From Methanocellales archaeon (lineage in GTDB: Archaea; Halobacteriota; UBA148), in NCBI GenBank assembly GCA_028715985.1, contig JAQUQR010000001.1, positions 267,905 through 331,904 on the forward strand: a DNA stretch of 64,000 nt, read 5' to 3'. The notes below the pieces were generated by a model that searched no databases, was not told the origin of the DNA, and saw only the letters and a list, made by a program, of their open reading frames with translations. This document shows positions 6,344 to 34,958 of the stretch, one piece after another; within the stretch, counting starts at the first letter, position 1, and each line of letters begins with the position of its first letter. The translations under genes and the position numbers were made by a program.

Positions 6344-6919
6344 TTATGCTGTAATTTCAGAAGAAATTATTTCTTGTATTTGAAACCAATAGGTCAACAA
6401 TTCCTTTTCTTTCTTTTCGTAATCGGGAAATTTCTTGGAAATTGTTTTCCAGAAGTGTTCATTGTGCCTTTTTTCTTTTAAGTGTATTAGTTCATGATAG
6501 ACGATGTAGTCGATCATTTTTTGGGGGAGGTATCTCATTAGTGTGTTGAATGTCATATTTTTCTTACTACTACAGCTTCCCCAATTTGAATTCATTTTTC
6601 GGAAATATATGTGATTTATATGAAAATCGCCTTCTTCAGAATAGTTACTCGCTATCGAGTTCACAAGTTGTTTGAATTTATCCTCTGATCTCTCCACGAG
6701 ATTTTTCTTTTTTGAATCCCTGAGTGCAGCCTGAATTATCCGGTTTTTTTCATGAATCCAGTCTTTGTGTTTTTCAATAATTTCAGCAGGGTTTTTTTGG
6801 TGTTCGGGTAAAACAAGGAGCAATCTACCTGTCTTGAATTCCAGTCGAGGATACTTTACCCTTCTCCTGGCTACAGTGTATTCAATTTTTGTATCATTTA
6901 GGCTATGCTTTTTGGCCAT
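6344..6919 (-). CDS. DUF45/YgjP-like (M48/WLM-like) zinc metallohydrolase
   Basis: HELIHLKEKRHNEHFW contains an HExxH zincin motif at the position typical of YgjP/SprT-like hydrolases. Confidence 0.7.
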   Translation of the reverse strand: MAKKHSLNDTKIEYTVARRRVKYPRLEFKTGRLLLVLPEHQKNPAEIIEKHKDWIHEKNRIIQAALRDSKKKNLVERSEDKFKQLVNSIASNYSEEGDFHINHIYFRKMNSNWGSCSSKKNMTFNTLMRYLPQKMIDYIVYHELIHLKEKRHNEHFWKTISKKFPDYEKKEKELLTYWFQIQEIISSEITA

Positions 6920-6998
6920 AATTTTTAATCTTCTCTATAAGGTCGTAGTATATCGCGTCTAAATCCTCTATCCTTAGTTTGTTTTTTCACAAATCTTC

Positions 6999-7316
6999 TT
7001 ACATATCTTCGTAGTTCCCTCTCAAAATTCCGCGGTATTTTTTTATTTGCTGGTTGGTGAGTTTCTCGTTGCAGTCCAGTAGGGTTGCGTTGAATGTTTC
7101 GGCTTTGTGTATCAGTGCTTGGGTTTCGTTTCTGGTGATCGTAAAATCGACATAATATTGCTTGTCTACGCGTTCTTTTTTGGCGTCCATTAAGGGCGTG
7201 TTGTCGATTCCATAGAGTTCTTTGAGAAGGACTATTGTTGCAGTGTGGTTTTCGCTTTTTACGCCTGTCCTGTGCAGAAGTGCTAGGGCAGCATAATACA
7301 TGCTGTAGTAGCTCAT
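6999..7316 (-). CDS. HEPN domain protein (toxin partner of the MNT gene)
   Basis: About 100 aa and helical. Lies directly downstream of the nucleotidyltransferase gene on the same strand, the usual MNT-HEPN arrangement. Confidence 0.55.
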   Translation of the reverse strand: MSYYSMYYAALALLHRTGVKSENHTATIVLLKELYGIDNTPLMDAKKERVDKQYYVDFTITRNETQALIHKAETFNATLLDCNEKLTNQQIKKYRGILRGNYEDM

Positions 7317-7403
7317 GCTTACGGATTCCTCGAGTTTGTCGTGTTCAAGAAGTAGTTTGGCTGATGAGAGGTAGCTTCGGCTTTTATCGATGTATGCGTT
7401 TTT

Positions 7404-8006
7404 TTATGGCATCGCTTGCTCATCCAAGCGGAGTTTCCCTTCCTTGGCCAGTTTATTGAAGAATCTTGTTTTTTCATAGTACTCCTCGACTCCCTTGATC
7501 AGGACGTGGTTTTTCATTATCTCCTGTATGAGGGGGTTTTGGGCGTTCCATCCTCCGATTTTCACGCTCAGGCGGGTATTTATTTGCTCGAGTTGTTTTT
7601 TCAGTTCAGGGTCTTGCGTTTCAATGTAGACATCTATGTCGCTTTCAGGGGTTGCCGTGTTTTTCGCGTGGCTTCCGTAGAGCACTGCCAGTTTTATGTC
7701 TGGGTTTTTCTGGATTTCCTGCATTATGCCCCTCAAATGCGGGTATGTGGCGAGGGTTTCTCCCAATTTGTAGTGCTCCGCCATGACTGCAGCGTTTTTT
7801 GTCTCTAAGGTGTCTTTGAGGCGGTAGGTCTTATTTTTGCCGTCCTGCGTGTAGTCTACGACATTGTCTTCCAGGAGTTTTTGTAGCCTGCGGTTTACGG
7901 TAGCATGGCTGGCGTCAAGTCTTCTCGCAAGCTCCCTACTATGGCATCCACCCCTGAGCAACTCCAAAACGATCCTATTGGTCAATTCATGTTCCACATG
8001 TATCAT
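7404..8006 (-). CDS. minimal nucleotidyltransferase (Pol-beta superfamily) with N-terminal wHTH
   Basis: LYGSHAKNTATPESDIDVYIE is the GS...DxD motif of MNT-type nucleotidyltransferases. The N-terminus has an HTH. Confidence 0.75.
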   Translation of the reverse strand: MIHVEHELTNRIVLELLRGGCHSRELARRLDASHATVNRRLQKLLEDNVVDYTQDGKNKTYRLKDTLETKNAAVMAEHYKLGETLATYPHLRGIMQEIQKNPDIKLAVLYGSHAKNTATPESDIDVYIETQDPELKKQLEQINTRLSVKIGGWNAQNPLIQEIMKNHVLIKGVEEYYEKTRFFNKLAKEGKLRLDEQAMP

Positions 8007-8273
8007 ATTTGAACCAGCCTATATATTAACTCTCCTTAACCCGCATCCTCCTGGTCAACAAGTCGTCCATCAAGCCCTTCTTGATCCTTTCCAGCGCCGT
8101 TCGCGCTCCAGCCCAAGTTTATGGTCTTATCTATAATTTAGGTATCTCCAATCTATTATGATAATTATAAACGGACAACGCTCTAAGGAGTCCTCGTTAA
8201 ATTTTTTTCGCGCAAAAATACTTGGTAAAATTTATATAAATCATTTTGTTTAATGTTTTATGGGTGATGTATC

Positions 8274-8456
8274 ATGGCAAAAGAAATTCACGAAGGTGGC
8301 CCTTCGGGTGCCATCTATGGCTTGGGTTTTATCGGTGCGGCAGTGTATTTTATCGGGCAGGCAACGACATTTTGGATGGGCGTGCTCGGACTTTTGAAAG
8401 CAATCGTTTGGCCGGCTTTTCTGGTCTATGCCTTGCTTAAATACCTGGGTGTCTAG
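8274..8456 (+). CDS. hypothetical small membrane protein
   Basis: 60 aa with two hydrophobic helices. Start-stop coupled to the next ORF. Confidence 0.3.
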   Translation: MAKEIHEGGPSGAIYGLGFIGAAVYFIGQATTFWMGVLGLLKAIVWPAFLVYALLKYLGV

Positions 8457-8458
8457 TC

Positions 8459-8776
8459 ATGGCTGAAAACAATACGAGATATCCCGAAGGCCATTTTGTA
8501 GGAAAGTGGATGGCAATAGGCATTGTCATCTTTTCAGTATTTGGGGTTCCCATCAGCATTGTCTCTGGAAACCCGGGATTAATTGCGATAGGGCCTGCAG
8601 TGGGTGTTGCTTTTGGGCTGGCAATCGGCTCTTCAATTGAATCCAAATATAAAAAAGAGGGGAAAATAAGGCCCCTCACAGAAGATGAAAAAAAGCAAAG
8701 AAAAATGCTATTGATCGCAGGCATAGCACTTTTCCTACTGGGACTTGCAATATTTCTTTTACGATTGTTTTCATAA
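8459..8776 (+). CDS. hypothetical small membrane protein
   Basis: Three hydrophobic segments plus a Lys/Glu-rich loop. Confidence 0.35.
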   Translation: MAENNTRYPEGHFVGKWMAIGIVIFSVFGVPISIVSGNPGLIAIGPAVGVAFGLAIGSSIESKYKKEGKIRPLTEDEKKQRKMLLIAGIALFLLGLAIFLLRLFS

Positions 8777-8847
8777 TTGCTATTGAAAGTGCAAAACTAA
8801 ACATAACATAAAAGGAAAATGGAAATAAACCAAGATCTCTAAAAAAC

Positions 8848-13126
<4,279 letters not shown>

Positions 13127-16841: not shown

Positions 16842-16954
16842 GGACTTGTGGGGTAGTGGACTATCCTCTTGGGCTTCGGACACGAAGTTATCTACTCACT
16901 TTGAAAACTCAAGGAAGATACTCAAGGACCTGGGTTCAAATCCCAGCAGGTCCG
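16842..16954 (+). tRNA. probable intron-containing tRNA (anticodon uncertain; TCG for Arg if the loop is CTTCGG)
   Basis: Acceptor 5' GGACTTG pairs with 3' CAGGTCC (one G-U wobble). T8 is present. D-arm is GGGT/AGTGGACT/ATCC with GG in the loop. A perfect T-arm CTGGG-TTCAAAT-CCCAG is followed by the acceptor 3' strand and discriminator G. The span is about 113 nt, which implies an intron of about 40 nt. Confidence 0.4.
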
Positions 16955-24232: not shown

Positions 24233-24784
24233 ATTTTTTAGTTCGTGGAAGGCGACAAAACGTTCGGAAGCTAGTTTATAAAGAAGGCTTATCGTTGTTT
24301 TAGTTGGTAATGTTGCTAAATATGTAGAAAATGATTTGAGATACAAATTAAAAAAATCAGATAAACCTGCTGTTTTTGAATTACAGAGATTTAGGATCAA
24401 ATTGATTAATAAATCGGATAGTAAATCAAAAAATATTTTAGGTTTAGATATTCTAAATCTATTTAGATCAAGCTCATCTTCACAATATACACTGAAAGGC
24501 GGACTTCTACTTAAAATCAAAGATTTTACTCAAAAACATGATTTTCAGTTTAGCTTATTGAAAAAATAGTCTCTCTTATTGTAAAAAAAATTAAAAACGA
24601 GCGGTCATCTATTCAGTTGAACACAATGCTGTAGCTCTTCTTTAGCATGCGACCGCTCTTCTTTAGTACGCTTCTTTAGTATGCGAGCCCGATTTTAACA
24701 TTTATTATAACAGATATACTAGTTAGTTAAAAAATAAACAAAAACTATGCATATGCTGATATAATTACTATATTAATATCGACT

Positions 24785-26048: not shown

Positions 26049-27272
26049 ATGGGAGCGATGCGAGAAATCGAGCTTGAAGGTCATATTATCGATTCGATGG
26101 TCCTGACGAAGGTATTCGATAAGGTAATGGACATGGATGGCGAGTTTGAAATCCTGGAGTTCAGGATTGGAAAACGCAAGACTGAGCATAGCTATGCTCG
26201 CCTCATGATCGTCGGCGAGGATGATGCACATGTGGACAGAATCCTAAGCGAATTACATCGATTGGGTGCACGATTGCCAGAAATGGAGGATGCCATCTTG
26301 GAGAGAACGCCAGCTGACAAAGTCATCCCGAAGGGCTTTTACTCCACTACTAATCATCCGACCTATGTCAGGCATAACGGCAAATGGCTGACCGTCGAAG
26401 GCATAGGGATGGATTGTTTGATTCAGGTAGATGGTAATAGGGCCATATGCAAGCCGCTTTCACATGTTCGCAAGGGCGATTTGGTCGTGATCGGGCAAAG
26501 GGGGGTGCGTGTGATCCCGCCCGAGCGCCCAAGAAAAAGATCGATTTTCGAGTTCATGGGCAATGCCACCTCTTCTGAGAGGCCCTCAGAGACGTTGATT
26601 CATCAGATTGCCGAAGAAATAATTGACGTCAAAAATAAGGGCGGCAAGATCGCAGTGGTGTGTGGGCCCGCAATAGTTCACACTGGGGCGTCAGGTGCAC
26701 TCGCAGAGATGATCAAGAAAGGCTATGTGAGCGTCTTGTTGGCAGGAAATGCCTTGGCTGTTCATGATATCGAGTACAATCTGTATGGTACATCCCTCGG
26801 AATGGACATGGGGAAAGCGGAACCCGTGTCAGGAGGGCACAGACACCACATCTATGCGATCAGTGAAATCATGCGAGCTGGCTCCATAAGGGCTGCAGTG
26901 GAGCAGGGCATCATATCGGGAGGGATCATGTACGAATGCATTAAAAACGATACGCCCTTCGTGCTTGCCGGATCCATCAGGGATGATGGGCCCCTGCCAG
27001 ACGTCATAACGGATGTGATGGTGGCACAGGACAAGATGAGGGCTGCGGTAAAAGACGTCGATCTGGTGCTGATGATGGCTACGATGCTGCACTCCATAGC
27101 TGTCGGCAATCGTCTCCCATCCTATGTGAAGACCATTTTTATCGATATCAACCCTGCCACCGTGACGAAGATCATGGACAGGGGAACAGCTCAGGCAATG
27201 GGCATCGTGACAGATGTGGGAACGTTCCTGCCAATGTTGGTTGAAGAGCTGGGTAAGTTAGAGAATATGTGA
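26049..27272 (+). CDS. LOR/SDH-domain protein, TIGR00300 family (archaeal-type ornithine cyclodeaminase-like)
   Basis: About 400 aa conserved across archaea. Sits in the arg gene neighbourhood. Confidence 0.55.
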
Positions 27273-27630
27273 CGTTACTTTTATACAATTCAAGCATGGG
27301 AACATAGGACATTTATGTAGCATATAAACGAGGTAGGCGATATTTATTCCCAATGGAGATAGGCAATGTAGGAAGGACAAACTATCTATAAAAGATGACA
27401 ATTACAATGATTCTATTGTAAAATCAACTTTTTTCAATCATCACAGCCCTACTCAAATTCTATTTGAACCGTCATGTAAAACCACCTTTTCTGCTAGCCT
27501 GAGATTCTCATAGGTTTTTGGTTAGGTTAATAAATAAAATCTAAAGACAGTGCCCCTTATTTCTACAAGAGTGTGGCTAGATTTTTATTGATACGATGCT
27601 GTGTGTTTTTTGTCAATATTACTCAAAAAA

Positions 27631-27686
27631 TTGCTTAAATTAAGCAATATTCTAACTAATTAACTATATCAATAGTGACAATAACA
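27631..27686 (+). promoter_or_regulatory. promoter of the HD-TIR operon: palindromic operator TTGCTTAAATTAAGCAA (27631-27647), then TATA-like TTAACTATATCA and the conserved block TAGTGACAATA
   Basis: Same palindrome, TATA and TAGTGACAAT block as the promoters of cassette genes A and B. Confidence 0.55.
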
Positions 27687-27717
27687 TTTTAATACATAAG
27701 CGAGGGACACGTGCAAA

Positions 27718-29688
27718 ATGCAAGATGAACAAAAAGATCGTTGGGTAGGATGGATTAAAACTCCAGAATATAGAGAACGCCTGCAGACAATAGAGAACCG
27801 TGTTATACAACTGTCATCTAATGAAATCAACACTAGTGGTTATACACCCCACGATGCCAGTCACTGTTTGGCAGTTGAAAATATGGTAAAAACTTTAATT
27901 CAAAAAAGCGAAGCCAAACTTAGCGATTTAGAACAATTTATTCTTTTTGGTGCCGTATGGACGCATGACTTGGGAATGTTCATGGACATACGAGAGGCTT
28001 TTTTCGAGGACCAAAAACAAGAGGTTAAAAAAGGAGAGTATAAACTGCGAGTTGCTAGAGAGATACATGACAAGATTTCAGCATGGTACTTATCTTCTAA
28101 CTACAGTGAGATTCTAAAAATCCAGAGTGATGAAGATGGCCAATCAAAAACTATTATTGACAACTTGTTAAGAAACTATACCTACACTATAAATGTGATA
28201 AGTTGATTTCACCGTATAAGGGAAGACATAAAGGATTGTCCTAAAGAGAGATTACTAAAGGATGAGAAGATACGCACACGCCTATTAGCGTGTTTACTAA
28301 GATTAGGAGATACTTTGCATATTGACTCCAGTAGATTCGATGAAAAACTCTATGATGTCTTAGAAATAGGGCAACTACTGGATAGGAGTGCAAGACTTCA
28401 TTGGCTGAGGTCATATGTTGTGTCTGGTGTATATTTGGATCCTAAAAGTGAAACCATTTTTGTCAACATTGACTTGCCGATATCCTTGAAATCTCCCCAG
28501 AACAACGAATTAGATAGAACGGAGGAGATCAGAAATCTAGTGTCTGTGATTATTAATGACCTTTCCGAAGACGTGCTGGTTGTTAGAGGGACATTTAAGG
28601 ATTATGGTTTTCCCGCCTACGATAGAGTAGAACCCAATATATCTTTCATTCCAGGATATTCGGGAAAGGATGAGAAAGAAATAGAGGGTATGGTGAGTGA
28701 CCTTGGAGTTGTCCTTTTTCCTAATACATCTAGAGTCATAGAGAAAGCCCTTGATAGCATCACCGCTATATGTAATATCTATTTTGGAATTGAAGGTCAG
28801 AGATTTGATAGTCAGATGGATGAATTGTTGTCATATCTCGAAAGTGTACACGAGACTCGGCCCTGTCACGTTGGACTCCGCAAGATAATTGATGAAGCAC
28901 GTGATGTGTTTAATAATAGATCCTATCAGAATAAGAATAGGGGAGATGTATCAAGTCAGGATATAAAGAAATGTCAAGATAATATCTGCGCAAAACTCAA
29001 TGAAATCAAAGATAAAAGAGAAGGATATCTAAAAAGCCTGTATAAAAAATGTGAAGACAACTTGCTGGATGACTTCGAAAACATAATTCTTTTTGCATAC
29101 AGTGAAACAGTAACTCAATTTCTTGAAAAGTATGGTGAACACCACCCTTCATGGAAAGATCGAGTTAAACTCTATGTATTAGAGTGTGGTGGGAAAAGAC
29201 GTTTTACGCGCAACAATAACATAGACTACAATGATGGTATATATTACGCGTTCCAGCTATCAAAGCACGGTTTCAAGAAAAAAGATCAAATCATGTTGTT
29301 GCCAGACACATCCTTTGGTTCTCTTGCATACAACCTGAAGAATCAAAATATGGCAAAAAAGTCTTTGGTCCTATTTGGGGTTAATGGCATCGATAAAGAG
29401 AGCCATGACTGCGGGCACACATCTGGGCATCGCATGGTAGCAATCGTGGCACAAGAATCCAGAATCCAAGTCAAGGTTATTGCAGATAGTTTCAAGGTAG
29501 GGAAAATAGAGTGGAGCCCCATGCTTGAGAGACCCGCTCACTGGCTAACAGGCAAACGGGACATGTATAGTGACATAAAAAAACACAACATCAAACTGAC
29601 AAACTATTTAGAAGATAGAATTCCAATAGATCTAATAAATGAGATAATCAAAGATGGGGATAACATACCTGGAAAGGCTAAAAAATAA
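27718..29688 (+). CDS. HD-domain phosphohydrolase or nuclease fused to a large uncharacterised C-terminal region (about 656 codons); one in-frame TGA at 28204-28206 (candidate pseudogene or recoding)
   Basis: HD motifs are SHCLAV (His), WTHDLGM (His-Asp), REIHDKIS and LLRLGDTLHID. The last motif lies after the TGA in the same frame, so ORFs 27718-28206 and 28315-29688 form one reading frame. The C-terminal part includes a Gly-rich VLFGVNGIDKESHDCGHTSGH segment reminiscent of Rossmann-like ligand-binding folds. Confidence 0.6.
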
Positions 29689-30537
29689 ATGTCTGCAACT
29701 CGATTTAATCTTTCGCCTAATGATGTTGATGTATCCGATACAAAAATTTTTATTTCTTACAAAACGAAGGAATGGGAATACGCTAAAAAACTTAGCGAAG
29801 AACTGAGAAATTTAGGCTTTGGTATTATAATTGTTCCTCCACAACCATCAAGTTCTCCAAAAAAGAAGAATGAAGATATTAAAACATACCTTTCTGAACT
29901 AATAGATGATGCTGATTACATATGTATAATAGTCTCCGAAATGTCTCTCATGTCAGCTTGGGTTCAATACGAATTTAAGGAAGCTGCTAGTTTGATTGGT
30001 CGAGTTGTTTTCGTTAATAAAGATAATACGCAACTTTTTTCAGGATATGAAGCAGTTGATTACCTTCAAAAGGGATTTATATGGCGGAATTTATATGTAA
30101 AACATTCCACTCTTACATTACCGGAAATTACAAATGAGGGTGTAAATGAACTTGCTATACAATTACTAAATGATCCAGACGAAGGTTGGTATGATGGTCG
30201 AGTATCGGTTGGTCGAAGATGCCCAGCAAAAGGATTGCGTTATCAAAATAGGATGAAAAAATATGCCAGAGAGTGTGTTTTGGTAGATCCCAAATATGAG
30301 CATAAGTATGTTCTAGAGGTAATTCCATTTAATTGGAGCCAAATAGAATGCGATAAAGAAGATATGGAAGCTGTCTTAAAATCAATTATTCTGGATCGAG
30401 GACTCCTAAATCTTGAAAGATCTTTTCTTAATGATGAAGTAGACATTTTTCAAACTTGGTACTTCGTAACGGAATTTGAAGAATTTTTAGAAAAAGATGA
30501 TTTTGGTCTTAACGTTTTTGTTGTGTTAGAGCGCTGA
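29689..30537 (+). CDS. TIR-domain protein (N-terminal TIR of about 130 aa plus a C-terminal domain of unknown function)
   Basis: KIFISYKTKEWEYAKKLSEELRNLGFGIIIV matches the TIR betaA-alphaA-betaB segment. ADYICIIVSEMSLMSAWVQYEF matches the SxWCxxEL region that carries the putative catalytic Glu. The ATG directly abuts the HD gene's TAA. Confidence 0.65.
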   Translation: MSATRFNLSPNDVDVSDTKIFISYKTKEWEYAKKLSEELRNLGFGIIIVPPQPSSSPKKKNEDIKTYLSELIDDADYICIIVSEMSLMSAWVQYEFKEAASLIGRVVFVNKDNTQLFSGYEAVDYLQKGFIWRNLYVKHSTLTLPEITNEGVNELAIQLLNDPDEGWYDGRVSVGRRCPAKGLRYQNRMKKYARECVLVDPKYEHKYVLEVIPFNWSQIECDKEDMEAVLKSIILDRGLLNLERSFLNDEVDIFQTWYFVTEFEEFLEKDDFGLNVFVVLER

Positions 30538-30624
30538 TGGAACTTGATTTATATAAATATGGGGTGGAAGACTGTTCTATTTAAAGACTGCCTGCAATGG
30601 ACGGCTAACAGCGAACAAACGAAA

Positions 30625-30685
30625 TATAATATTTACAAATTGCTTTTCAACTTCGTTTGTTTTTTCGCAAAACGTTATTCCCCTA
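30625..30685 (+). terminator. hairpin with a 10-bp stem (AACAAACGAA...TTCGTTTGTT) followed by TTTTTCGC, downstream of the TIR gene
   Basis: Perfect inverted repeat with a loop of about 33 nt and a T-run. Confidence 0.35.
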
Positions 30686-30706
30686 ACCTCAACCACTACT
30701 CCACAA

Positions 30707-30762
30707 ACATCAAGGGATAGTCCAGCTTCTCATCATATCTCATAATTCCCGCGACCTTGGCA
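30707..30762. repeat. 56-bp perfect direct repeat, distal copy (duplicate of the mptD 3' end)
   Basis: Identical to 32662-32717. Confidence 0.9.
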
Positions 30763-30851
30763 ACTTGATTTAGGATACAAGCAGTTATGTGCAATTGAAA
30801 AAGTTCGCCTTTAGAATGTTTTATAAATTTCAAGTCGTTATTTAAAGAAAT

Positions 30852-31415
30852 ATGGAGCTGGGAAAAAAGCTATATGTAACCAATAGAAACGATTGGCGTT
30901 CATGGCTTGCTAAAAATTATGATAAAGAAAAAGAAATTTGGCTAATTTATTATAGAAAATCATCTGGCAAACAAAGAATACCATACAACGATGCTGTTGA
31001 AGAAGCACTCTGCTATGGATGGATAGATAGCAATCTCAAAGGTATTGATGAAGAAAAATTTGCCCAAAGATTTACTCCAAGAAAACCGAAAAGTAAGCTT
31101 TCAGAGATGAATAAAGAACGTGTTCTTCGCCTTATAGAACAAGATAAAATGACTTTCATTGGTCTTGCTTCCATAGAACACGTATTTGATACAAACCAAA
31201 AAAATAAAAAATTAACAATTGCTCCTGATATTTTGAAAACCCTTAAACAAGACAATGAAGTTTGGAAAAACTTCCAGAAATTTCCTGACCCATACAAACG
31301 TATTCGTATCGGTTGGGTAGAAGGAGCTAGAACTCGCCCGAAACTTTTTAACCAGAGATTAAATTATTTTCTTAAGATGACAGCAAAGGATAAAAAATAT
31401 GGGAAGGTACAGTAA
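30852..31415 (+). CDS. YdeI/OmpD-associated family protein
   Basis: N-terminal WRSWL...EIWLIYY and CYGWIDS motifs characteristic of this family. Confidence 0.65.
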   Translation: MELGKKLYVTNRNDWRSWLAKNYDKEKEIWLIYYRKSSGKQRIPYNDAVEEALCYGWIDSNLKGIDEEKFAQRFTPRKPKSKLSEMNKERVLRLIEQDKMTFIGLASIEHVFDTNQKNKKLTIAPDILKTLKQDNEVWKNFQKFPDPYKRIRIGWVEGARTRPKLFNQRLNYFLKMTAKDKKYGKVQ

Positions 31416-31705
31416 TAAAATGACGGCGCACTTCTTCGCAACTTCGTTGCTCGACCATGTTGCACTCTCGCCTTCGGCTCGGGGCACATAACAGCGATTA
31501 ACAGGTTCAGCTCTTAGAGAGCCTCAACCCAAATTTACTTCGCAAACTTCTATTAATCGTATAGGTTAGGCGACATGCCTTCTTTATCTTTTAAGTAGTT
31601 TTCCAGCTAAACTTTAAGGATAAAGGGGCAAAACAAAATTTTTGATATAATGAAGTCAATTCAAGTCAAAAGACATTTAAATACTTATTAACCAAATTTA
31701 AACCT

Positions 31706-32104
31706 ATGAAAGGATTTACCACAAACATCGAAAAAGACACCTTAAAAAACGAAAATTTCCGCAAGGTACTATACACCTCAAAACACAGCCAACTGGTTCT
31801 GATGAGTTTAAAGCCCAATGAGGACATCGGTATGGAAGTTCATTGGGAAAACGATCAATTCTTCCGCTTTGAAAAAGGGCAGGGAAAGTGCATCATTGAC
31901 GGCAACGAATATAAAATTGGTGATGGTATAGCCGTTGTTGTGCCTGCCGGGGCGAAACACAATATTATTAACACATCGGATAAAGAAGAATTGAAGCTTT
32001 ATACAATATATTCTCCTGCTCACCATAAAGATGGTATTGTCAGGGCTACTAAAAAAGAAGCAGAGGCTAGGGAAGCAGAATTTGATGGTGTAACGACTGA
32101 ATAG
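31706..32104 (+). CDS. cupin domain protein
   Basis: Cupin motifs G(x)5HxH-like (MEVHWEND) and a GxxxxxPxGxxH-like motif (VVVPAGAKHNIIN). Confidence 0.7.
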   Translation: MKGFTTNIEKDTLKNENFRKVLYTSKHSQLVLMSLKPNEDIGMEVHWENDQFFRFEKGQGKCIIDGNEYKIGDGIAVVVPAGAKHNIINTSDKEELKLYTIYSPAHHKDGIVRATKKEAEAREAEFDGVTTE

Positions 32105-32282
32105 AATAATTTCTTGAAAAGATTTTTGCAAGCGGCAAAGTAAAATGAAAGATAAAAAATGTGACAACAGCAGATAACAAGTGGATAAAGGGGAAATCAA
32201 AGATTTCCCGGATTGCCTTCAACAACCTCTTTTATCTGCAAATCGTTATACGCCATTAACTCGTTCAAGGAGAAGATAAAAT

Positions 32283-32645
32283 ATGATTGACATCATTTTA
32301 TACTTATTAATCGGTTTATTTGCAGGGTTTGTCAGCGGGTTAATCGGCATCGGCGGTGGAGTCATTATCGTGCCGATATTGATTTATCTGTTGGGTCTAA
32401 CACAGCACCAAGCACAAGGGACAACCTTGGCTTTGTTAATTCCCCCAATCGGTTTGTTAGCTGCTTGGACCTACTACAAGCATGGTTATGTAAATTTCAC
32501 TATAGCGGTTTTTGTTTGCTTGGGTTTTTTTATCGGAGGATTGTTTGGTGCAAAGTTAGCTGTGGGATTGTCAAATGAAACACTGCGAAAGGTCTTTGGG
32601 GTTGCATTGCTGTTAGTAGCTTTATACATGATTTTTAAGAGATGA
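32283..32645 (+). CDS. TSUP (TauE/SafE) family half-size membrane transporter
   Basis: Four TM helices with GLIGIGGGVI.VPIL motifs. Confidence 0.7.
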   Translation: MIDIILYLLIGLFAGFVSGLIGIGGGVIIVPILIYLLGLTQHQAQGTTLALLIPPIGLLAAWTYYKHGYVNFTIAVFVCLGFFIGGLFGAKLAVGLSNETLRKVFGVALLLVALYMIFKR

Positions 32646-32650
32646 GCCCC

Positions 32651-32983
32651 CTACTCTATAGACATCAAGGGATAGTCCAGCTTCTCATCATATCTCATAA
32701 TTCCCGCGACCTTGGCAGAGCCATATTGCACCTCTATGTGCACGTCCAGCATCCTGCCCTCCAGCTCGCAATAGCCGAATTTATTCAGCTTTTCCTGGAC
32801 CCTGTCGCGGTCTATCAAGACCTTTGCGCTTAACACGTATGGCTGAGCTGAGACGCTCTTCTCGATGGCGCGCTCTAAGCTGTCCAGCGTCTCCATGTTG
32901 AGGGGTGCGCCCGTATACTGGTGATACAGCGCCCCCAGCTTGATGCCAAGCTCGAATAACGCGCGCTCTCTATCCGATCGCAT
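32651..32983 (-). CDS. dihydroneopterin aldolase, archaeal MptD-like (assignment tentative)
   Basis: About 110 aa. Resembles the COG2098 family. Its 3'-terminal 56 bp are duplicated at 30707-30762. Confidence 0.45.
   Translation of the reverse strand: MRSDRERALFELGIKLGALYHQYTGAPLNMETLDSLERAIEKSVSAQPYVLSAKVLIDRDRVQEKLNKFGYCELEGRMLDVHIEVQYGSAKVAGIMRYDEKLDYPLMSIE
32662..32717. repeat. 56-bp perfect direct repeat, proximal copy (within the 3' end of mptD)
   Basis: Identical to 30707-30762. Confidence 0.9.
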
Positions 32984-33632
32984 ATTTCACCTTCCACACT
33001 AACGGGCTTAATATGTAGCCCGTGACCATCATGAGGGGGATCAGGTTAATAAAGTGCACATTTTGGACGGAGTATATGATGATGCTGAAGATGAGTACAA
33101 TGCCAACGGGCATCAGAATTTTTCTATCCTGAATTTTTGGATAGCTGATGCTGCTTACCATTAATGCTGAGAGAATCAGGTAGGAACCTGCCAATATCCG
33201 TGGATCTGCTTGGATGGTGATGAGCAGTGCCATACAGATTCCACTTGCGGTGATGGGTAACCCAACGAACTCCTTGCTTTTTGAACTTATGTTGAATCTC
33301 GCCAATCTCAGCATTCCACATGTCAGATAGGCTGCCGTAAAACCCGATGCAATATAGGGGTTTATCTCATTGATAAGCATGTAACCTGCTATAGCAGGCA
33401 CGATGCCAAAAGATACGAAATCCGCAAAAGAGTCCAGGTTCACGCCGAAAACTCCGTTCTCTATGTTTCTTGCGATGAATCCATCTAAGCCATCTACAAG
33501 TGCTGCAACCAGGATTAATACAGAAGCGCTTCTAATCTCTCCCCTTGCCACCATCAAAAGGGCGACGAATCCGAGTAGCGCATTCACGATCGTCACCAAA
33601 TCCGGTAACTTGATTAGCTTAAGAATGTTCAT
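32970..33632 (-). CDS. pssA: CDP-alcohol phosphatidyltransferase; archaetidylserine synthase
   Basis: D-G-x2-A-R...G...D-x3-D motif (DGLDGFIARN...GVNLDSFAD). Adjacent to psd and the archaeosortase. Confidence 0.8.
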   Translation of the reverse strand: MNILKLIKLPDLVTIVNALLGFVALLMVARGEIRSASVLILVAALVDGLDGFIARNIENGVFGVNLDSFADFVSFGIVPAIAGYMLINEINPYIASGFTAAYLTCGMLRLARFNISSKSKEFVGLPITASGICMALLITIQADPRILAGSYLILSALMVSSISYPKIQDRKILMPVGIVLIFSIIIYSVQNVHFINLIPLMMVTGYILSPLVWKVKYAIG

Positions 33633-33633
33633 T

Positions 33634-34221
33634 TCATTTATCTCTCCCTCGCCTCGCTATCACCGTCTCTCCTGCTTTGACCCTGTCACCGGGTTTTACG
33701 GTGAGTTCATACTCAGGTGGGATGGTCACTTCCACTCTGGATCCCAATAATATCGCTCCAAGCCTTTGCCCCGCCTCCACTTTATCCCCTTCCTTCACAT
33801 AGCAAACAATTCTCCTCGCCAGGATGCCTGCGATTTGAATTACGCTGACATCACCCTGCATCGTCTCGATCGTGATATGATTTTGCTCATTTTGATTCGT
33901 ATTTAGGAACGCAGGCCTGTGCATTCCTTTCAAATATTTGATCTCTTTGATGATGCCCGGCAAAGGGGCTCTGTTGACATGCACATCGCGAAGCCTCATA
34001 AATATGGTCACTTTGCTCCCAGCATGCATGACCACTCCATCAGCTGGAGATATGAAGCCCGATCCCTTTGGTGTTCGGTTCGGATCCCTGAAGAACAGCA
34101 TAAAAAAAATTACCAACGCAGCTCCAAGGATTGCGATCGGATACGTCTTAAGCAATATGGCGCCCATGGTTAACACCAGCGGAATCGCTATCCAACCCGC
34201 AGAGCCCTTGAACATCACCAT
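33634..34221 (-). CDS. psd: archaetidylserine decarboxylase proenzyme (PSD-related)
   Basis: Small PSD family. The G-S-T self-cleavage region lies near the C-terminus (ILLGSRV). Context next to pssA. Confidence 0.8.
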   Translation of the reverse strand: MVMFKGSAGWIAIPLVLTMGAILLKTYPIAILGAALVIFFMLFFRDPNRTPKGSGFISPADGVVMHAGSKVTIFMRLRDVHVNRAPLPGIIKEIKYLKGMHRPAFLNTNQNEQNHITIETMQGDVSVIQIAGILARRIVCYVKEGDKVEAGQRLGAILLGSRVEVTIPPEYELTVKPGDRVKAGETVIARRGRDK

Positions 34222-34958
34222 CTCCTTAACATCCCTGTTAAATCTTCTATCATGTCTACAACTTCTGGCAAGATAAGAAAGACGATATAAGCTATCAGAA
34301 ATAGCGCAATCGTGGACCCCATCTTCGCGAGTCCATGGTGTGCTATGTAAAAACTATGCTCACCGAACCATTGGTATCCATAAGCTGCCATGATGAACAT
34401 GTTTCGGATTATGTTGAGGACGTATATCAATGGAACCGATGCCAGGAACGCCTTGAATCTTCGCATGGGGGGTGCGTCAACTGCAAAAGTAACCCCGGTA
34501 AACAGTGCCATGCTTTCGATTCCCGTGCAGGCAAGGATGATCTTGATTTTGTATTCATTCAGGAAGATGTAACTTCCCAGTTTTGTGGCGGGAGCACCCA
34601 ACAAATTCAATCCCCAGACAGTCTGGGAGGTTACAGTCTCTATCAGCAAATCCCCTAAAAAAGACATTTCAGCAAACGGAAAGTAAAGGAACCCGCCGAT
34701 CACCGCTGCGCAGGTTATCGTTAGCAGCGTGTCTGATTCAGGTGATCGGAGGTTTAAAAATACCATGCAAATGCAAAACAAGCTTACCAAAATCATCAGT
34801 ACCGCGTTAAAAAAGTCTGAATTTTCGAGATAATGGGGCGGTTGTAGAGCCCAATGCGCTGCAAAAAACATCCATCCTGAGGCACCGATAAGGTTTTTAT
34901 TTCTGGGTATGATTATTGCTACCAGAAACAATATAAGTGAGATCCAGAGAATTATCAT
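34215..34958 (-). CDS. artA: archaeosortase (ArtA-like)
   Basis: Polytopic membrane protein with an ACTGIESMALF active-site Cys motif and conserved Arg residues (IIRNMF). Confidence 0.65.
   Translation of the reverse strand: MIILWISLILFLVAIIIPRNKNLIGASGWMFFAAHWALQPPHYLENSDFFNAVLMILVSLFCICMVFLNLRSPESDTLLTITCAAVIGGFLYFPFAEMSFLGDLLIETVTSQTVWGLNLLGAPATKLGSYIFLNEYKIKIILACTGIESMALFTGVTFAVDAPPMRRFKAFLASVPLIYVLNIIRNMFIMAAYGYQWFGEHSFYIAHHGLAKMGSTIALFLIAYIVFLILPEVVDMIEDLTGMLRRW

Follow-up and report, generated by a model that had tools for sequence, protein, structure and literature searches.

Thoeris systems join a TIR protein (ThsB), which makes a signal derived from nicotinamide adenine dinucleotide (NAD), to a separate effector (ThsA) that senses it, and eukaryotic eIF2B is a ligand-regulated stress and antiviral hub. 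The locus examined here brings relatives of both together. In a stretch of 64,000 nucleotides (nt) from a Methanocellales archaeon (GenBank assembly GCA_028715985.1, contig JAQUQR010000001.1, positions 267,905 to 331,904 of the forward strand; hereafter the window), a gene for an HD-CE/eIF2B-like fusion protein (gene 1) is immediately followed by one for a ThsB-type TIR protein (gene 2). An earlier note on this DNA took the pair for a candidate Thoeris-like defence module with an HD enzyme as a new effector. Such a two-gene module is not supported, co-location of the two families being absent from 26 HD loci and four TIR contexts elsewhere. The pair is instead read, with a probability of roughly 0.6, as two immune-type genes, each mobile on its own, that recently came together by chance and form no conserved two-gene system.

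The features of the locus, in window coordinates and with lengths in nt or amino acids (aa), are as follows.

27273..27717, plus strand: AT-rich intergenic region of 445 nt, 5' of gene 1, on the left margin of the low-GC island; no notable open reading frame (ORF); G+C 0.33-0.35
27718..29688, plus strand: gene 1, HD-CE/eIF2B-like fusion, nonsense-disrupted; 656 codons including one TGA
27718..28653, plus strand: HD-CE phosphohydrolase domain, about aa 1-312; metal-binding His/Asp codons all present
28204..28206, plus strand: in-frame TGA, codon 163, following the HD motif and preceding the downstream His/Asp residues
28663..29685, plus strand: domain resembling eIF2B and ribose-1,5-bisphosphate (R15P) isomerase, about aa 316-656; helical N-subdomain and Rossmann-like C-subdomain; predicted non-catalytic
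29686..29697, plus strand: recombination junction TAAATGTCTGCA (12 nt), where HD-gene homology stops and TIR-cassette homology starts
29689..30537, plus strand: gene 2, ThsB-type TIR protein, intact, 282 aa
29740..30078, plus strand: TIR domain, about aa 18-130; FISY, D76 and S..S.W...E95 conserved; recognised by Pfam (TIR_2, ThsB_TIR) and Foldseek
30091..30534, plus strand: family-specific C-terminal domain of gene 2, about aa 135-282; KH, NDPDEGW, R..VL.D and VIPF conserved
30693..30762: left copy of a 70-nt direct repeat, the displaced 3' end of the dihydroneopterin-aldolase (DHNA) gene, dividing the HD/TIR segment from a separate 1.95-kb insert
32648..32717: right copy of the repeat, within the DHNA gene (32651-32983, minus strand), in its functional 3' end

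Junction and pairing of the two genes

The reading frame of gene 1 runs from ATG at 27718 to TAA at 29686-29688 with a single internal TGA, and its stop codon abuts the ATG of gene 2 at 29689, from which a 282-codon ORF extends to 30537; the start-stop coupling described in the earlier note is thus real. The closest relative of gene 2, on a 1.2-kb contig (L038) with no other called gene, shares 87% aa and about 91% nt identity with it, with a synonymous divergence (dS) of 0.17. Nucleotide homology between the two is confined to the stretch that begins at about codon 4 and ends three bases 3' of the stop, and the 234 nt upstream of the relative lack both a called gene and any homology to the HD gene. 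From the other side, homology to relatives of the HD gene stops at about 29685, so that both homologies break inside the 12 nt TAAATGTCTGCA at the TAA-ATG junction. Gene 2 begins with MSATRFNLSP against the family-native MRIRxNLSP, and the tail of the HD protein in gene 1 is 4-7 aa shorter than in its homologues P0001 and P0002. Because homology breaks within 12 nt of the TAA-ATG, the coupling is, judged from these alignments, the scar of a recent single-gene insertion and not an inherited operon feature. The locus offers a clean example of a single-gene immune cassette spliced stop-to-start into an existing gene, and a caution that tight coupling alone is not evidence of a functional module. 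The TIR cassette of L038 carries a GC-rich motif, GTTGGTCGCTC(C/G)G, on both sides (59-72 and 1085-1097), with copies of ATTTTGCC nearby; the flanking motif may be a recombination or cassette-boundary signal.

Conservation of the pair was assessed in 26 non-redundant HD-CE/IF-2B loci with flanks, many on short contigs, out of at least 310 family clusters. The loci come from both archaea and bacteria, including Candidatus Argoarchaeum, a Methanophagales metagenome-assembled genome, Geobacteraceae, Magnetococcus and a deltaproteobacterium. A TIR of the gene 2 family is present in none of the 26, and hidden Markov models of either gene 2 domain gave no match in the six-frame ORFs of any HD locus examined; reciprocally, an HD-CE/IF-2B gene is found in none of the four TIR-family contexts. 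The neighbours of HD-CE/IF-2B genes are heterogeneous (Pfam scan, 50 neighbours), with no recurrent neighbour family among the HD loci by all-against-all BLASTP. Within the window, none of the 68 other ORFs matches a ThsA model at E<=1e-8, PADLOC returns no other specific defence system, only generic ATPase-type matches, and a PDC-M50A homologue is not found.

Homologues of gene 2 have immune neighbours of their own. One (P0056) adjoins a ThsB_TIR gene, a ThsA of SIR2_2-STALD (SIR2-SLOG) type and a type I restriction-modification (RM) system; another (P0054) sits in a five-TIR array (L031-L033, e.g. L031 763-7498); a third (P0059) lies directly 3' of a PDC-M50A/B pair (L034-L037, e.g. L034 2647-7249). 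Response-regulator and histidine-kinase genes come next after the five-TIR array, which has no recognisable ThsA and in which one product is a TIR-HEAT protein of 1161 aa. A 423-aa protein upstream of P0059 shares about 108 aa (39% identity) with a 254-aa response-regulator protein (L031 9408-10172), and since both of these regions match the C-terminal part of the PADLOC 'Effector TIR' model, the shared region may be a common effector or partner domain for the gene 2 family. The earlier note had let its proposal stand or fall with co-location elsewhere and with defence-island association; the former was not found in any other locus retrieved, telling against it, and the latter is seen, qualitatively, for both families.

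The two protein families and their surroundings

The N-terminal part of gene 1 matches the Pfam family HD-CE (PF24391, E 5e-30, aa 41-246, 105 bits vs a 27-bit cut-off). The HD motif set that had been read there by eye is confirmed by an alignment of 39 homologues, with H83, D84, H117 and D198 invariant and H49 nearly so; H165, H201 and D203 are likewise invariant and H45 nearly invariant. Gene 1 therefore encodes the H...HD...H...D metal-site residues in an all-helical HD fold, the structural neighbours of which are the Ppx/GppA HD-like domain and cyclic-nucleotide phosphodiesterases (PDEs). The literature search found no description of HD-CE (PF24391) or PRTase-CE, and none of an experimental kind for HD-CE proteins.

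The C-terminal part matches IF-2B (PF01008, E 4e-8) and has the complete two-subdomain IF-2B fold, a helical bundle plus a Rossmann-like half, with R15P isomerase, MtnA and sugar-phosphate-bound eIF2B as its neighbours in the PDB; the earlier note's hint of a Gly-rich, Rossmann-like sugar-phosphate fold was therefore well placed. Both catalytic residues of the isomerases, Cys of the THC motif and Asp of the GAD motif, are replaced in the gene 1 family, which has G/A at the Cys position, F(G/A)YSE at the site of THAYS in human eIF2B-alpha, and G(V/A)NG at the site of isomerase GAD. The conserved Asn aligns with D204 of Pyrococcus horikoshii R15P isomerase (profile position 529 = residue 193 of 5yft), an assignment made by motif and by profile/chain coordinate mapping, not by explicit superposition; inactive crystal forms of that enzyme carry mutations at D204 and C135. 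This mapping rests on profile alignment because the Rossmann-like half, searched against the PDB as a single sequence, gave no match. Since the Cys and Asp positions are both replaced, the domain looks non-catalytic, resembling the regulatory subunits of eIF2B. Several basic and polar residues within it are strongly conserved (E489, K493, R494, H567, S569, H571, K593, R605).

The copy of gene 1 in the window lacks an intact ORF over the whole HD-CE domain, and its deposited annotation covers only a 457-aa downstream ORF (P0003). In all homologues the column of the TGA, codon 163, is occupied by Arg, Lys or Gln, with CGA (Arg) in the three nearest relatives (L001, L039, L004) and CAA in L006. 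Because the nearest relatives have CGA there, the TGA is, by this comparison, a single C-to-T nonsense change (CGA to TGA), which marks gene 1 as a nonsense pseudogene. Selenocysteine insertion or programmed read-through was considered and rejected, the column being never Cys. The stop splits the metal site in two, parting H49, H83, D84 and H117 from H165, D198, H201 and D203. Gene 1 also carries four substitutions at sites at least 90% conserved (Q216E, K231R, L572R, P584Q), vs none in the nearest relatives, and its ratio of nonsynonymous to synonymous substitution rates (dN/dS) is 0.67 against those relatives, compared with 0.50 between two intact relatives. These values are consistent with recent relaxed constraint on gene 1, without being conclusive.

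The HD-CE/IF-2B family comprises at least 310 clusters (50% identity) by exhaustive profile search at E<=1e-30, with a full-length profile match in most of the 150 listed representatives; a word-indexed search yielded 51 clusters. Searched as a profile by itself, the eIF2B-like domain retrieved nothing but HD-CE fusions or fragments. Never being found with a different effector, the eIF2B-like module appears from this distribution to be an integral regulatory or oligomerisation part of one machine and not a portable second-messenger sensor, and the idea of a promiscuous sensor module like SLOG or SAVED was set aside on the same result. Domains added in family members (P0105, P0144, P0146, P0174 and P0041, listed for the family as a whole) comprise an N-terminal Mrr_cat nuclease, an N-terminal calcineurin-like Metallophos domain, a C-terminal nSTAND6 NTPase and an inserted 4Fe-4S ferredoxin-like segment. 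A Rosetta-stone fusion to TIR was sought and rejected, the nine longest members having Metallophos, Mrr_cat or nSTAND6 and never TIR. A recurrent STAND partner was likewise rejected, because no similarity could be detected between the KAP/AAA_16 protein downstream of the Argoarchaeum homologue and the nSTAND6 extension of P0174.

Neighbours of HD-CE/IF-2B genes recognised by PADLOC include Dsr1, Septu PtuA/PtuB, Shosta ShosA and type II methyltransferases; prokaryotic Argonaute (pAgo) and an Eco57I/MmeI-type enzyme occur as well, and one locus holds a SIR2-STAND protein with a dGTPase-like HD domain, group II introns and an integrase. The SIR2 neighbour in L005 is a full-length Dsr1 (E=0). In the Magnetococcus locus L008, the HD gene stands beside another type of TIR, a CBASS/Pycsar-type TIR fused to a PRK/uridine-kinase-like domain. 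That locus (8145-11055) runs from the HD-CE/IF-2B gene through the TIR-PRK fusion and a 365-aa protein to a second PRK-like protein, an unusual combination. Several loci (L042, L045, L007, L009) have no recognisable defence genes. Because their neighbourhoods suggest an association with defence islands, the families of gene 1 and gene 2 are both judged to be immune-type.

The HD protein shares 77% identity with its counterpart in Ca. Argoarchaeum. Since this is far above the identity of PssA (39%) and Psd (51%) between the same two hosts, and since the G+C of the island is low, gene 1 is taken to be horizontally acquired, the family moving between archaea and bacteria. In both genomes an HD-CE/IF-2B gene lies within a few kb of a cluster for CDP-alcohol phosphatidyltransferase and phosphatidylserine decarboxylase (L001 1383-3472; window 32973-34958), on opposite sides, and in L001 (Ca. 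Argoarchaeum) an exosortase gene follows that cluster. Carriage of the pair on phages or plasmids was considered and rejected, the intact homologue of gene 1 having no tblastn match in phage or plasmid collections; IMG/VR holds no relative of either family.

Gene 2 matches the Pfam families TIR_2 (E 3.5e-9, 37.6 bits, cut-off 28) and ThsB_TIR (E 3e-6, 27.9 bits, cut-off 21.2). Its structural model (predicted local distance difference test, pLDDT, 80) has as best Foldseek matches a Bacillus cereus TIR (8fz9), ThsB-Tad3 (9b7d) and EcThsB (8wcf), and S86..S89.W91...E95 is invariant in the family alignment of 10 members. Pfam, Foldseek and this motif agree that gene 2 opens with a TIR domain bearing the catalytic Glu, as the earlier note had stated, and the protein is assigned from its sequence to the ThsB type with the catalytic Glu retained. 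The family comprises 10 clusters, across which residues of about 135-282 are kept; this region is modelled with pLDDT mostly 80-90 and gave neither a Pfam match nor a convincing PDB fold match. It presumably senses phage or infection. PADLOC recognises gene 2 weakly, as ThsB (E 8e-6) and PDC-M50B (E 0.006), and its v2 models give zero matches for gene 1; for membership of Thoeris as described, the ThsB match is favourable, and the lack of a match for gene 1 and of a ThsA in the window is not.

The low-GC island noted earlier is borne out by measurement, G+C being 0.33-0.39 over about 27250-32250 vs 0.45-0.53 in the flanking arginine-biosynthesis and lipid genes. Its bounding by a duplicated gene 3' end is not: the two repeat copies (94% identical), which are the 3' end of the DHNA gene, enclose only an adjoining OmdA-like/cupin/TauE segment to the right of the HD/TIR pair. 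The island is composite because the repeat encloses that segment and not the pair, and a single integrative element bounded by the duplicated gene end is rejected, the repeat copies bracketing only 30693-32717, with no second repeat near 27273. Products of the 1.95-kb low-GC insert are an OmdA/YdeI-like protein, a cupin and a TauE permease of half length; with no integrase among them, the insert resembles what is left of a small integrative element aimed at the DHNA gene 3' end. An archaeal promoter is presumed within 27273..27717, for which a sigma-70 promoter scan is uninformative, the host being an archaeon. A terminator after gene 2 was sought and rejected, the hairpin at about 30611-30668 being weak (z -1.8) and the terminator scan finding none.

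Further along the window, a 113-nt tRNA at 16842-16954 (plus strand, Rfam 39.9 bits), missed by ARAGORN, presumably contains an intron. About 20 kb from the HD/TIR pair, 6347-8006 on the minus strand holds a helix-turn-helix plus Pol-beta-type nucleotidyltransferase gene (7407-8006), a 105-aa ORF without a Pfam match (7002-7316) and a YgjP-like metallopeptidase gene (6347-6919), and this may be an MNT/HEPN-like toxin-antitoxin pair. The regional G+C minimum (0.29) falls at 24250-24750, in the intergenic region 3' of argJ, with a 17-nt repeat present three times at 24634-24684.

Explanations for the HD/TIR pair

Read as a chance juxtaposition, the locus would combine a freshly inactivated copy of a fixed-architecture family, dead here as gene 1, with a single-gene cassette carrying gene 2 that landed exactly at the gene 1 stop codon, creating the TAA-ATG coupling. 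The activities and roles in this scheme are predictions. Intact HD-CE/eIF2B-like proteins probably act alone: the eIF2B-like domain would bind a phosphosugar or nucleotide-derived ligand, and probably also serve dimerisation or oligomerisation, and it would gate the HD hydrolase, which would degrade nucleic acid or the nucleotide pool and so restrict the invader. An uncharacterised single-protein defence gene is a plausible description of the family. Gene 2 would be an orphan ThsB paralogue here, probably transcribed from the gene 1 promoter, and by analogy with Thoeris its TIR domain would turn NAD+ into an ADP-ribose-derived product once the C-terminal domain detects infection. It seems unlikely that gene 1 ever responded to that product. 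Several points weigh against a chance juxtaposition. The coupling is perfect, with a new ATG made at the junction, and may be a product of selection for co-expression; with no ThsA-like partner in the 64-kb window, the HD/eIF2B protein is left as the sole candidate effector nearby; pockets of the eIF2B family bind ribose phosphates, chemically close to the ADP-ribose-derived signals of TIR proteins; and a TIR or SIR2 gene does stand beside HD-CE/IF-2B in L008 and L005, though the one is a CBASS/Pycsar-type TIR effector and the other is Dsr1, both of other known types. In addition, the defence-island association is qualitative neighbourhood evidence without a genome-wide enrichment statistic, and only about 26 of the at least 310 family clusters were seen in context.

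The same observations would be accommodated by a recently assembled, functional Thoeris-like pair, in which the NAD-derived signal of the TIR protein binds the eIF2B-like domain and the HD hydrolase is the effector, the TGA then being due to a very recent loss, to variation within the population or to an error of sequencing. The newly made start codon of the coupled gene, a TIR of ThsB type whose catalytic motif is intact, the absence of ThsA from the window, the ribose and sugar-phosphate binding of the eIF2B fold seen in its PDB neighbours, the conserved basic residues of the Rossmann-like half (K493, R494, H567, H571, K593, R605) and the HD catalytic residues, all still encoded, fit such a pair. 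It is nevertheless unlikely, for the pairing occurs in one of 27 HD loci and in none of the TIR-family contexts elsewhere, the closest TIR relative (L038) being in a different context. Unlike the sensor domains SLOG, SAVED, CARF and Macro, the eIF2B-like module never occurs with other effectors; the nine longer family members scanned show no TIR fusion, and gene 1 has a nonsense codon together with extra substitutions at conserved sites. A bolder version, which we consider quite improbable, holds that HD-CE/eIF2B-like proteins are undescribed immune effectors, the eIF2B phosphosugar pocket sensing a nucleotide-derived alarm molecule and unleashing the HD hydrolase, and that one of them was newly wired here to a ThsB-type TIR, giving rise to an emergent Thoeris type whose sensor fold was new, not long before the nonsense loss of gene 1.

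Two further explanations, both very improbable in our view, dispense with any link between the genes. Gene 1 could be a dispensable metabolic or regulatory enzyme of nucleotide or pentose-phosphate salvage, related to the archaeal AMP-R15P pathway, situated in variable regions with an unrelated TIR gene beside it; the eIF2B-family fold is best known from the salvage enzymes MtnA and R15P isomerase, no PADLOC model matches gene 1, and L042, L045, L007 and L009 are without recognisable defence genes. A salvage enzyme is hard to reconcile with the replacement of both isomerase catalytic positions (Asn at D204, G/A at Cys), the sporadic, horizontally transferred distribution across archaea and bacteria, a dN/dS that is high (0.50) even between intact copies, fusions to an Mrr nuclease and a STAND NTPase, and repeated positions beside Dsr1, Septu, Shosta, RM and pAgo. 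Alternatively, gene 2 could be a self-sufficient NAD-depleting effector, uniting a C-terminal sensor with a TIR NADase, to which neither gene 1 nor ThsA is relevant. Its conserved catalytic Glu motif, the two-domain layout of sensor plus TIR kept across 10 clusters and the solitary position of the L038 gene among the called genes of its 1.2-kb contig suit this idea; three of the four informative contexts, however, have adjoining ThsB-type TIR genes (one with a SIR2-SLOG ThsA, one with PDC-M50A), as expected of ThsB paralogues that make signals and not of lone effectors.

The evidence argues against a genuine two-gene system, which would bring TIR immune signalling both an eIF2B-like sensor fold and an HD-CE effector, each of them new; as such, the pair is ordinary defence-island shuffling. 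Of lasting interest is the HD-CE/eIF2B-like family, which is sizeable, mobile, present in archaea and bacteria alike, located near known defence systems and absent from PADLOC. If an immune role were demonstrated, it would be the first case of an eIF2B-type domain acting in prokaryotic defence, and a parallel between the prokaryotic eIF2B-like domain and eukaryotic eIF2B is speculative.

Comparison with known systems

With Thoeris, the locus shares a ThsB: gene 2 has the TIR domain and the catalytic Glu motif, and its relatives stand beside ThsB genes, once with a SIR2-SLOG ThsA. It differs in that no ThsA, whether SIR2-SLOG or Macro-TM, is present in the 64-kb window, in the HD plus eIF2B-like architecture of the neighbour, which occurs in no PADLOC v2 Thoeris type, in the adjacency of the two genes, which is not conserved, and in the extra C-terminal domain of about 150 aa in gene 2. 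In the full text of the literature searched, eIF2B-type domains are nowhere linked with Thoeris or TIR defence, and eIF2B-like domains in prokaryotic defence were not found. The PADLOC candidate system PDC-M50 (A+B) is similar in that PDC-M50B is a ThsB-like TIR, matched weakly by gene 2, and that P0059 lies just 3' of PDC-M50A/B; it differs in that the window has no PDC-M50A homologue and gene 2 belongs to a distinct, longer TIR family.

With the IF-2B family (eIF2B subunits, aIF2B-like proteins, R15P isomerase and MtnA; PF01008), gene 1 shares the two-subdomain fold of its C-terminal part. Its domain is set apart by fusion to an N-terminal HD hydrolase and by motifs of its own (ECxGKRR, GxNGI, CGHTSGH, FK.G), and the family is sporadic, horizontally transferred and often situated near defence genes, not in translation-initiation or salvage operons. 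Gene 1 is not a member of the isomerase branch (MtnA/R15P isomerase), the catalytic Cys and Asp being replaced. The HD part agrees with HD-CE (PF24391) and the HD-PDEase superfamily (Ppx/GppA domain III, class I PDEs) in score, metal-site residues and structural neighbours, the difference being that the domain in gene 1 is broken by a stop codon.

Single-protein defence genes, such as DSR1/DSR2, Avs/STAND-nuclease and dGTPase-type HD proteins, form the remaining comparison. The HD-CE/eIF2B family differs from them in that an eIF2B-like regulatory domain is part of no PADLOC v2 system and that its defence role is only a candidate one. Like them, it occurs solo, often near known defence genes, and combines an effector with a non-catalytic regulatory domain, as predicted here; it also evolves rapidly and moves horizontally, some of its members gaining STAND, Mrr or metallophosphatase domains.

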